Shown here: in pieces, positions 18,175 through 20,731 of the stretch
Position numbering within the stretch: the stretch's first letter is position 1
Layout of the letters: every line of letters begins with the position of its first letter
Origin: Candidatus Altiarchaeota archaeon
GTDB lineage: Archaea > Altiarchaeota > Altiarchaeia > IMC4 > JBDREA01
Direction of reading: 5' to 3'
Length of the DNA: 46,369 nucleotides
Assembly (NCBI GenBank): GCA_043820265.1
Contig: JBDREA010000098.1
Coordinates: 1-46,369, forward strand
The notes under the pieces: generated by a model
Seen by the model: the letters and a program-made list of their open reading frames with translations, nothing else
Database searches by the model: none
What the model was told of the DNA's origin: nothing
Position numbers and translations under genes: made by a program

Positions 18175-18260
18175 AAACCATCAACTCCGACTTGGTGGAC
18201 TAATCAATTAGATGGAAGATGTTTAAAAAAGAGGGATATTACTAAATATTCTTCCGGCAC

Positions 18261-18392
18261 TTAGAAAAAAATTGCGTAAACGATTATCAATCCAAAGATC
18301 AAGATGACTGGCACCAGTATGTAGGCCAAAAATTTCGCCCCATCTCCGCTAACCACCACTTCCTCATCATAAAATGTGTCTTCGTCTTCCAT
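18261..18392 (-). CDS. putative 43-aa single-TM protein
   Basis: MEDEDTFYDEEVVV acidic head plus a hydrophobic helix. Confidence 0.45.
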   Translation of the reverse strand: MEDEDTFYDEEVVVSGDGAKFLAYILVPVILIFGLIIVYAIFF

Positions 18393-18470
18393 TAAAACCA
18401 CAAGAACAAATAAAAAGGCAGAACAAGTTAAAAAACAAACTGCTCTCAAAAAGGAAAGTGTCTGTTTAGC

Positions 18471-18572
18471 GGGATATACATAAGACCCCCCCTCGGTCAC
18501 GGAAAAGTTCCGCGCCCAAACTTTCAGGCCATTGTTCAATTTGTCAAATTTTGGGGGTCTTATGTATATCCC
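18471..18572. mobile_element. 102-bp MITE with 20-bp perfect TIRs and 14-bp TSD; candidate mini-casposon
   Basis: TIRs GGGATATACATAAGACCCCC (18471-18490) and GGGGGTCTTATGTATATCCC (18553-18572); direct repeats AGTGTCTGTTTAGC at 18457-18470 and 18573-18586, the latter overlapping the tRNA-Gln 3' end. Confidence 0.9.
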
Positions 18573-18582
18573 AGTGTCTGTT

Positions 18583-18655
18583 TAGCCCTGGGAGGATTCG
18601 AACCTCCGTCGTCGGTTCCAAAGACCAACAGGATAGGCCACTACCCTACAGGGCT
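18583..18655 (-). tRNA. tRNA-Gln(TTG)
   Basis: AGCCCTG/CAGGGCT acceptor; TTGGT-CTTTGGA-ACCGA anticodon arm; GGAGG-TTCGAAT-CCTCC T-arm. Confidence 0.96.
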
Positions 18656-18705: not shown

Positions 18706-18788
18706 TTCTTTCTTTTTCGTCACGCTCACGACCGGAGGTCGTGGCGCACAAGGAAACTTTGTTTCCTTCGTGACGTTTTTCTTTCTTT
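18706..18788. repeat. 83-bp repeat, copy A, with two bulged-hairpin modules (18723-18746, 18747-18772)
   Basis: 82/83 identical to 18888-18970. Confidence 0.92.
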
Positions 18789-18830
18789 CCGTAAACGCTT
18801 TCTTTCTTTTCCTAAAAGAAAGAAAGGGTT

Positions 18831-19032
18831 TGCGCCCACCGGGATTTGAACCCGGGTATTCAGCTTTCTCCGATCCCTTGTTTCGATTTCTTTCTTTTTC
18901 GTGACGCTCACGACCGGAGGTCGTGGCGCACAAGGAAACTTTGTTTCCTTCGTGACGTTTTTCTTTCTTTTCTAAAGAAAGAAAAAGGTTCTTGGAAGGC
19001 TGAAGTCCTAAACCAGACTAGACTATGGACGC
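18831..19032 (-). tRNA. tRNA-Gly(TCC) with 127-nt intron at 37/38 (18866-18992)
   Basis: GCGTCCA/TGGGCGC acceptor; TCAGC-CTTCCA^A-GCTGA; CCGGG-TTCAAAT-CCCGG T-arm; BHB with CTTC/GGAG helix and CAA, AAA bulges. Confidence 0.93.
18888..18970. repeat. 83-bp repeat, copy B, inside the tRNA-Gly intron
   Basis: One mismatch against copy A (G18903 vs C18721). Confidence 0.92.
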
Positions 19033-19815: not shown

Positions 19816-20731
19816 ATCTTTGTTTTTGGTAAGCAGAGGCTAGTAAATATTGCGGGAGTTAAGGTTGGGGGGCAGGTTAATGTGCCATGTTGCCTTATCT
19901 CGACTATTTTTTATGAGAGGGAGAGCCTTTTTTTGGATAATGAGGAGAAACGCTTTGATGAGAAGAAGGCCGAAAAACTGATTTTCGCCCAAGGAGCAGG
20001 CGGTTGATGAAACTGGCATTTCTGGGATGGTTGACGTTTATTTATCGGATTCTGTTTCGGCTCGTCGGAGGTTGGATTTTGTCTCTGATTTGACGGATTT
20101 GCCGATTTTGATTGATTCCACTGAGGCGCAGGTAAGGTTGGATGCGGTTAATTATGTCGAGGAAGTAGGCCTTATAGATCGTGTGGTCTATAATTCCATC
20201 AATGCTGGAGTCAGTAGTGAGGAGATAACGGCTTTGAGAGATTCTTCCATTTCTGCTGCGATCGTTTTGGCTTTTAACCCCACGAAAAGCGATGTTTCTG
20301 CACGTATCGATATGCTTGAAAACGGAGGAGGTGCCACAGAAAAGGGGCTTCTTGAAATCGCAGCGAAGTGCGGATTAAAGAAGGTTTTAGTGGACACTGG
20401 TATCACACGGATTGGGGATGGAGCCGGCTCTGCATTTCGGGCGATTCCTGTGATAAAAGCCAAATTTGGGTTACCTTCCGGCTGTGCCCCCCACAATGCG
20501 GTCTCAGCTTGGGGGTGGTTTAAGGAGATTGGTAGGCCTAAACATGTGGATTGGTCTTCTAATGCGATGGCTGCGATGCTTGGGGCTGACTTTATCTTGT
20601 ATGGTCCGATAGAATTCAGTCGAGAGGTTTATGAGGAATTGGCTTTGGCTTCGAATTTCCTTTCAGAAGCGGGCAAGGAGATGGGTCTTCGGATACCAAA
20701 GGATAATCCCTTCAGGAAGTTGAGTTATTAA
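19816..20731 (+). pseudogene. mtrH: MtrH/MtxH-family pterin methyltransferase, frameshifted near 19990 and with ATC at the expected start
   Basis: Frame 1: IFVFGKQRLVNIAGVKVGGQ...STIFY...FDEKKAEKLIFAQ; frame 2 continues EQAVDETGISGMVDV...PILIDST...VYNSIN...GLPSGCAPHNAVSAW...GADFILYGPIE. Confidence 0.82.

Follow-up and report, generated by a model that had tools for sequence, protein, structure and literature searches.

A candidate non-autonomous mini-casposon of 102 bp abutting tRNA-Gln of an uncultured altiarchaeote

Anatomy of the element at tRNA-Gln

The stretch of DNA analysed here (the window, 46,369 nucleotides) is contig JBDREA010000098.1 of a Candidatus Altiarchaeota archaeon (assembly GCA_043820265.1). 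It carries an intact gene for tRNA-Gln(UUG), and at the 3' end of that gene lies a gene-less element of 102 bp, in which two perfect terminal inverted repeats (TIRs) enclose a short non-coding core and are themselves enclosed by a perfect direct repeat, taken as a target site duplication (TSD). The contig, C98, belongs to a metagenome-assembled genome (MAG), G000, of 1,968,205 bases in 172 contigs, which is 82% complete with 1.3% contamination. The parts of the locus, with positions counted in the window, are:

18457-18470, no strand assigned: left TSD copy, AGTGTCTGTTTAGC, an exact direct repeat of 18573-18586 that abuts the left TIR
18471-18490, plus strand: left TIR, 20 nt, GGGATATACATAAGACCCCC, 100% complementary to 18553-18572
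18491-18552, no strand assigned: non-coding core, 62 nt, conserved in the copy of a second genome (G039, see below)
18553-18572, minus strand: right TIR, 100% complementary to the left TIR; the element's 3' end is ...TATATCCC
18573-18586, no strand assigned: right TSD copy, identical to the left; 18583-18586 are the tRNA-Gln 3' end
18583-18655, minus strand: tRNA-Gln(UUG), the intact target gene and presumptive "leader" side (ARAGORN; Rfam RF00005, 60.3 bits)
18595-18601, minus strand: T-loop segment TCGAATC, at -15 to -9 of the upstream cut, as counted from the sequence

With both TSD copies the element spans 18457-18586, and neither the TIRs nor the direct repeat can be extended by one base more in either direction. 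Because ARAGORN places tRNA-Gln at 18583-18655, the right repeat holds the last 4 nt of the tRNA and 10 nt of its trailer; read on the tRNA strand, it is GCTA (tRNA positions 70-73) followed by the first 10 trailer bases, and the upstream cut falls between tRNA positions 69 and 70. The TIR starts GGGATATA, and the 3' end of the element is ...TCCC. As a single strand the element folds into a hairpin with a 20-bp stem (z = -5.4), and no Rfam family matched it at E<=1. Short, non-coding and bounded by TIRs with a TSD, it has the build of a miniature inverted-repeat transposable element (MITE). An earlier examination of the letters and open reading frames (ORFs) of the window, called here the sequence-only reading, had given the same coordinates and sequences for the 20-bp TIRs, the 62-bp core, the 14-bp repeat, the GCTA overlap and the intact tRNA, and all of these were confirmed.

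To evaluate chance, the repeats were compared with shuffled sequence and with the rest of the genome. The TIR 20-mer, at up to 3 mismatches, occurred at only these two sites in the window, and two matches were found in 0 of 100 shuffles; the repeat 14-mer, at up to 2 mismatches, was likewise confined to its two sites, with at least two loose matches in 6 of 100 shuffles, a test that ignores the exact flanking position. Throughout the genome the TIR occurred only twice, as the element's own arms. When inverted repeats were sought genome-wide with a 12-nt seed and 20-600 nt between the arms, 164 were returned across all 1,968,205 bases, with arms of at least 14 nt in 28 and at least 16 nt in 4, and an abutting direct repeat was present at just 1 of the 28, the element described here. 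Although the genome has 40 GGGATATA and 35 TATATCCC sites, the sole pair within 40 kb that is flanked by a 14/15-nt repeat (up to 3 mismatches) is again this element, and tRNA-Gln is the one tRNA among the 16 called by ARAGORN in the assembly whose terminal 14-mer is duplicated downstream. The TIR/TSD structure is more than chance, and its anatomy, perfect 20-nt TIRs abutted by a perfect 14-nt duplication, is that of cut/insert transposition.

A second copy in another family

When the locus was compared by BLAST with 41 genomes (G000 and 40 relatives), the element itself was matched in one relative only, G039 (same order, different family), at 89% identity over 70-71 nt. The 102 bp alone, searched against the order's 49 genomes, also matched only G039 at E < 0.001. 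The G039 copy is ~99 nt long and lies on a contig of that genome (C98) that begins at base 7 of the left TIR. Its core aligns with a 3-nt deletion, and its right TIR has 1 mismatch to that of G000. The two arms of the G039 copy differ from each other at 3 of 14 comparable nt, so that this copy looks older; for the G000 copy, with its perfect TIRs and TSD, a recent insertion is plausible. The right flank in G039 is unrelated to the G000 locus, a second exact copy of the flanking 14-mer was not found in G039, and the tRNA-Gln(UUG) gene of G039, on another contig, is without the element.

Since the mini form stands at two loci in two independently assembled genomes, as would be expected of a MITE, although with one copy per genome, it is not an assembly collapse, and a collapsed longer element, a scenario raised in the sequence-only reading, is thereby excluded. 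The same core at another locus, together with the empty tRNA-Gln gene in G039, speaks for movement or transfer of the mini form as one unit. The element was present at 0 of 7 tRNA-Gln genes of relatives, G039 included, a comparison that shows only that the element is missing, because relatives more distant than the genus are too diverged for an empty site to be aligned base by base. In the same-genus genome G001, the best match to the tRNA (L062, G001:C2, 2038-2236) is split by an intron of ~120 nt, and ARAGORN makes no call there; G001 is without an alignable counterpart of the intron-less tRNA-Gln locus, and its matching tRNA stands in a different context.

Wider searches for the ends returned few candidates. 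With up to 3 mismatches, the 20-mer had single matches (2-3 mismatches) in 6 genomes of the order beyond G000 and G039, none of which matched the 102-bp element at E < 0.02, and the matches in G042 and G043 lie in coding-looking sequence without the core. A scan of the class and phylum, the latter examined as one class of 61 genomes, at up to 2 mismatches again gave only G000 and G039. The pattern GGGATATA-N70-100-TATATCCC in those 61 genomes matched G000 and one site in G030, which has no TIR past the 8-mer. In the larger collections, scanned with exact or degenerate words by which diverged ends would be missed, an exact 19-mer of the TIR was found only in G039 among 185,579 species genomes and had 0 matches in viral contigs; a degenerate 19-mer had 4 matches in metagenome contigs, and a 16-mer 7 in viral contigs, all of them single and without core or partner arm. 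Logan contigs of one study (runs X1-X3) covered parts of the stretch at ~2x depth, none of them over 18208-18580.

We also examined the 61 genomes for casposon-type ends at the same distance from the T-loop, with a pattern that recovered G000 as positive control, and only the site described here was convincing. One further match, in G010 (L101, G010:C1:154290-154328, minus strand), has a tRNA-Pro(GGG) followed by exactly 10 nt and then GGGGATAT, which is casposon-end geometry. It was read as chance, because GGGGATAT starts a 31-codon CxxC...CxxC zinc-ribbon-like ORF and the 14-mer is unduplicated on the contig.

Likeness to casposons and alternative explanations

Casposons are Cas1-driven transposons that have been proposed as ancestors of the adaptation machinery of CRISPR systems. 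Published casposons have TIRs of 25-602 nt and TSDs of 1-27 nt with a median of 15 (PMC4046053), and for five casposons of euryarchaea the target extends over the final 4-7 nt of tRNA genes, which remain unaltered (Krupovic, 2014; PMC4046053). Here, a 20-nt TIR and a 14-nt TSD, both perfect, adjoin each other, and the TSD overlaps the last 4 nt of an intact tRNA, as in casposons of family 2 (PMC6977970, PMC4046053). The comparison of ends that follows rests on sequences printed in papers.

The closest likeness is to the casposons of Methanosarcina mazei. Their TSD is 14 bp long and comprises the final 4 bp of tRNA-Leu and 10 bp beyond it (PMC6977970), and the element at tRNA-Gln has the same 14-bp duplication, 4 tRNA bp and 10 bp, with the tRNA intact (PMC6977970, PMC4779613). 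The TIR of MetMaz-C1 is 5'-GGGATATAGGTAACTC..., with a 14-mer as TSD (PMC10359463); compared by eye, its first 8 bases, GGGATATA, are identical to ours and 12 of the first 16 match. By arithmetic, an 8/8 match at the TIR start has a chance of ~1.5e-5. In M. mazei, too, the casposon terminates in a 3' C (PMC6977970), and, set against GGGATATAGG... (PMC10359463) and TCCCC (PMC6614799), the element has both the 3' end ...TCCC(C) and the TIR start GGG(G)A... of family 2. The TIR start, 14-bp TSD and tRNA 3'-end target that the sequence-only reading had given for M. mazei are therefore upheld by PMC10359463 and PMC6977970. The M. mazei TSD differs in starting with CGCA, where ours starts with GCTA and the target is tRNA-Gln. 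Site-specific integration in M. mazei requires the TSD and 30 bp of the tRNA (PMC6977970).

In Aciduliprofundum boonei the target is tRNA-Pro, at whose 3' end AciBoo-C1 makes TSDs of 14-15 bp; the last bases of its TIR are ...TCCCC-3' (PMC6614799, PMC5137440). The duplication length and the tRNA 3' end had been given correctly for this organism too, but the "ATATA" part of the TIR start given for it does not occur in the main text of these two papers and stays unconfirmed. The A. boonei element needs only the 3'-terminal TCCCC, of which C-3 and C-4 are critical and one terminal base is dispensable (PMC6614799), and the TCCC found here fits that determinant. The A. boonei casposase also requires TCAAATC 9-15 bp upstream of the insertion site (PMC6614799). 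The T-loop segment TCGAATC occupies the same place here, -15 to -9, and by this analogy may serve as the recognition determinant. A CC dinucleotide at the border of leader and TSD is important in A. boonei, whereas the TSD here begins with GC.

In size and content the element is unlike these casposons. AciBoo-C1 is full-length and autonomous with a TIR of 37 bp, and MetMaz-C1 and MetMaz1FA1A3-C2 (the latter at tRNA-Leu) are ~10 kb long, encode Cas1-solo, PolB and HNH proteins and have TIRs of at least 31 bp, whereas ours has 102 bp, no genes and TIRs of 20 bp, and comes from another archaeal phylum, which is uncultured and yielded no casposon. Since it lacks both a Cas1-family integrase and a family B polymerase, it is classed as a casposon-type MITE and not as a casposon, and since it has no coding capacity it would depend on a casposon that this assembly does not contain. 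Smaller forms have been described. Experiments in M. mazei give a precedent for mobilisation in trans, the chromosomal casposase having integrated a mini-casposon without genes in vivo (PMC10359463), and laboratory mini-casposons, in which casposon TIRs bracket a marker cassette (A. boonei in vitro; M. mazei pRS1520 in vivo), are, like our element, gene-less for transposition, flanked by TIRs and integrated in trans; these are man-made and kilobase-sized, and the present one is natural and 102 bp long. Solo-TIRs have also been reported from 43 strains of M. mazei, as have degraded copies without TIRs from M. burtonii (PMC4779613). The solo-TIRs are likewise small casposon-derived remnants beside a conserved target motif (PMC4779613), but a solo-TIR is one end and immobile, while here both ends and both TSD copies are intact.

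Taken together, in TSD length, in TSD register on the tRNA and in the terminal bases of the TIR, the footprint matches that of family-2 casposons, so that it agrees with a rare and highly specific mechanism in three or four respects that are largely independent. We consider it probable that the element is a non-autonomous mini-casposon, that is, a MITE with casposon-type ends mobilised in trans by a family-2-type Cas1. By analogy with the systems described above, the integrating enzyme would be a casposase. It would bind the 3' part of the tRNA-Gln gene, with the T-loop and T-stem as the "leader". The two 3'-OH ends of the element (...TCCC-3') would then be joined to the target at points 14 bp apart, one on each strand, with the leader-proximal cut between tRNA positions 69 and 70. 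Gap repair would duplicate the 14 bp (4 tRNA nt and 10 trailer nt), leaving the tRNA intact and the element flanked by AGTGTCTGTTTAGC. The casposon that supplied the enzyme may be unbinned, lost, or on another replicon.

Several findings weigh against a mini-casposon. Its 20-nt TIR is below the published casposon range of 25-602 nt (PMC4046053), and the identity to the M. mazei TIR fades beyond base 8. With just two copies known, one in each genome, the copy number is low for a MITE. No tRNA was found in the 8 kb on the other side of the G039 copy, and the TSD of that copy is unreadable because the contig starts inside the left TIR. The sequence-only reading had looked to further copies and to a cas1-solo/polB element with the same ends. 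A second mini copy did come to light, in G039, but no longer or autonomous element with these ends, and hence no autonomous partner for the MITE, was found in G000, in the phylum's 61 genomes or in the word scans of the genome, metagenome and viral collections.

The enzyme itself was also sought. Cas1 (PF01867) had no match in G000 or in G039 (84% complete), and no casposase or casposon PolB was found in G000, G039 or the phylum's 61 genomes. Cas1 was matched in 15 of the 61, with 18 matches at 17 loci; neighbours at 13 of the 17 loci were scanned with Pfam, and Cas2, Cas4, Csa1 or a CARF-type gene adjoins Cas1 at each of these 13, which marks them as CRISPR adaptation modules, and the other 4 (L076, L078, L079 and a split gene in G050) were judged from the sizes of neighbouring ORFs alone. 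PolB (PF00136) is encoded by two genes each in G000 and G039, size-matched at 784/777 aa and 734/734 aa, which look cellular; PF03175 matched only inside one of the PF00136 genes. A scan of viral contigs with an alignment of 10 of the phylum's 18 Cas1 matches gave one locus, which was read as non-casposon because a Cas4-sized ORF adjoins Cas1 and GGGATATA ends are absent. Absence from the lineage of any casposon with these ends, which the sequence-only reading had named as something that would weaken its call, thus holds within the data searched and leaves the casposase link unsupported. Since neither MAG is complete and mobile DNA tends to drop out in binning, the lack of a casposase is weak evidence, but it leaves the enzyme an inference.

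Of the other explanations, the one that survives best, though unlikely, is that the element is a MITE derived from and moved by an unsampled transposase other than Cas1, for example a DDE enzyme with a long stagger, the 14-bp duplication and the tRNA end being coincidental. MITEs of prokaryotes mostly derive from insertion sequence (IS) elements, and IS4, IS481 and IS1182 are families able to give duplications of more than 10 bp. That no casposase was found in the lineage would suit such an origin, as would the many short repeats at contig ends, which indicate that mobile elements are under-assembled in this MAG. IS-derived MITEs of archaea and bacteria are likewise small and ORF-less, with TIRs, a TSD and a transposase acting in trans. 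They typically have TSDs of 2-10 bp, and they carry the ends of a DDE-transposase IS; neither an IS nor any other transposase-bearing element with these ends, which would have told against a casposase as the sequence-only reading had pointed out, was found in the genome, the phylum's 61 genomes or the three collections; the genes adjoining the element are housekeeping genes. A transposase other than Cas1 also needs three independent coincidences, namely 14 bp, a cut at tRNA position 69/70 and a GGGATATA terminus, and we know of no DDE family that combines these features of the footprint.

Considerably less probable is a full-length casposon at tRNA-Gln that was later deleted in place down to its ends, so that the 102 bp never moved as a unit. 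Decay of casposons is documented (PMC4779613) and there is one copy per genome, but in G039, an independent assembly, the mini form recurs at another locus, core junctions included, and the tRNA-Gln gene is empty, two independent deletions would not yield the same 59-62-nt core, and perfect TIRs and TSD speak against long decay. Accordingly, of the two origins that had been offered from the letters alone, a mobilised MITE fits better than a casposon deleted in place.

A structure that is not mobile at all, such as a hairpin terminator or small RNA past the tRNA, an attL/attR scar of a recombinase, or an assembly artefact, would account for the long hairpin fold and the position in the tRNA trailer. 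Elements with a tyrosine recombinase also target the 3' ends of tRNA genes, where direct repeats result. In M. mazei they occupy the same tRNA-Leu as casposons (PMC4779613). We regard all of these as scarcely credible, since recombinase elements have att cores, an integrase and no TIRs abutting the repeats, whereas here the duplication abuts the inverted repeats exactly and no integrase lies among the 10 neighbours, no Rfam family was matched, the element is present in 0 of 7 orthologous tRNA-Gln trailers, and the same sequence was assembled independently in G039 in a different context, which excludes a collapse artefact.

Surroundings and meaning of the candidate mini-casposon

The element sits between tRNA-Gln and a T-rich tract that follows the left repeat copy. 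The ten ORFs flanking it were read with Pfam as housekeeping, and comprise an EamA transporter, a TrmB regulator, a three-gene ABC transporter, triose-phosphate isomerase, an MtrH-like methyltransferase, DUF460, an amidophosphoribosyltransferase-like protein and an ORF of 44 aa without a family. No transposase, integrase, Cas1 or PolB is among these ten, and the statement of the sequence-only reading that cas1 and polB are missing from the window agrees with this. The 44-aa ORF (18261-18395, minus strand), which has no Pfam family, starts ~80 nt past the element on the tRNA strand and is parted by the insertion from tRNA-Gln; its translation, judged by eye, has an acidic N-terminus and a hydrophobic C-terminal half. 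The MtrH-family methyltransferase (PF02007, 239 bits; 20027-20731, plus strand) adjoins triose-phosphate isomerase and hints at a methyl-tetrahydromethanopterin (methyl-H4MPT) type of one-carbon (C1) metabolism in this uncultured lineage.

A second tRNA (18831-19032, minus strand; Rfam 45.3 bits), with an intron of ~130 nt, is found 175 nt upstream of tRNA-Gln. A hairpin-rich segment of ~85 nt from this intron (18888-18975) recurs in the spacer between the two tRNAs (18706-18790) at 98% identity and, at 90%, on another contig of G000 (C26:236-284), with no Rfam family. Short palindromes of a similar kind, CTTTCTTT...AAAGAAAG beside a CGTTCACGAAA-like word, trail or interrupt many tRNA genes of G000 and of G010 (L101 1600-2400) and may be a lineage-wide flanking or intron signal of tRNAs. 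Repeats of 145-320 nt with 86-99% identity are numerous at contig ends of G000 (e.g., C57/C95, C18/C34, C3/C156, C10/C50), so that other repeated, possibly mobile, elements are collapsed or unassembled in the MAG; self-BLAST of the MAG returned no complete repeated IS, only short repeats, many of them at contig ends.

What is known of casposons so far comprises large autonomous elements, decayed solo-TIRs and mini-constructs made in the laboratory. We found no natural casposon-derived MITE in the literature, as far as the accessible parts of PMC13343696 and PMC6452270 go and with PMC6563490 being without the term, supplements and subscription journals lying outside this scope. A bolder reading, which we hold to be doubtful, is that a natural casposase integrates pieces of ~100 bp beside a tRNA "leader" in a phylum without casposons, as an intermediate between transposon insertion and CRISPR spacer acquisition, with a unit of 14-nt repeat, 102-nt insert and 14-nt repeat. 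Either a casposase lineage, perhaps resident on a viral or extrachromosomal replicon, would then await discovery, or another Cas1 would cross-mobilise the element.

The element offers a small natural pair of substrate and target, with 20-nt ends on the one side and the 3' segment of tRNA-Gln with 14 bp on the other. If it is indeed a mini-casposon, MITEs would parasitise casposases just as they do DDE transposases, site-specific integration in vivo would extend to very short DNA, and casposase activity would reach, or would once have reached, a phylum without known casposons.

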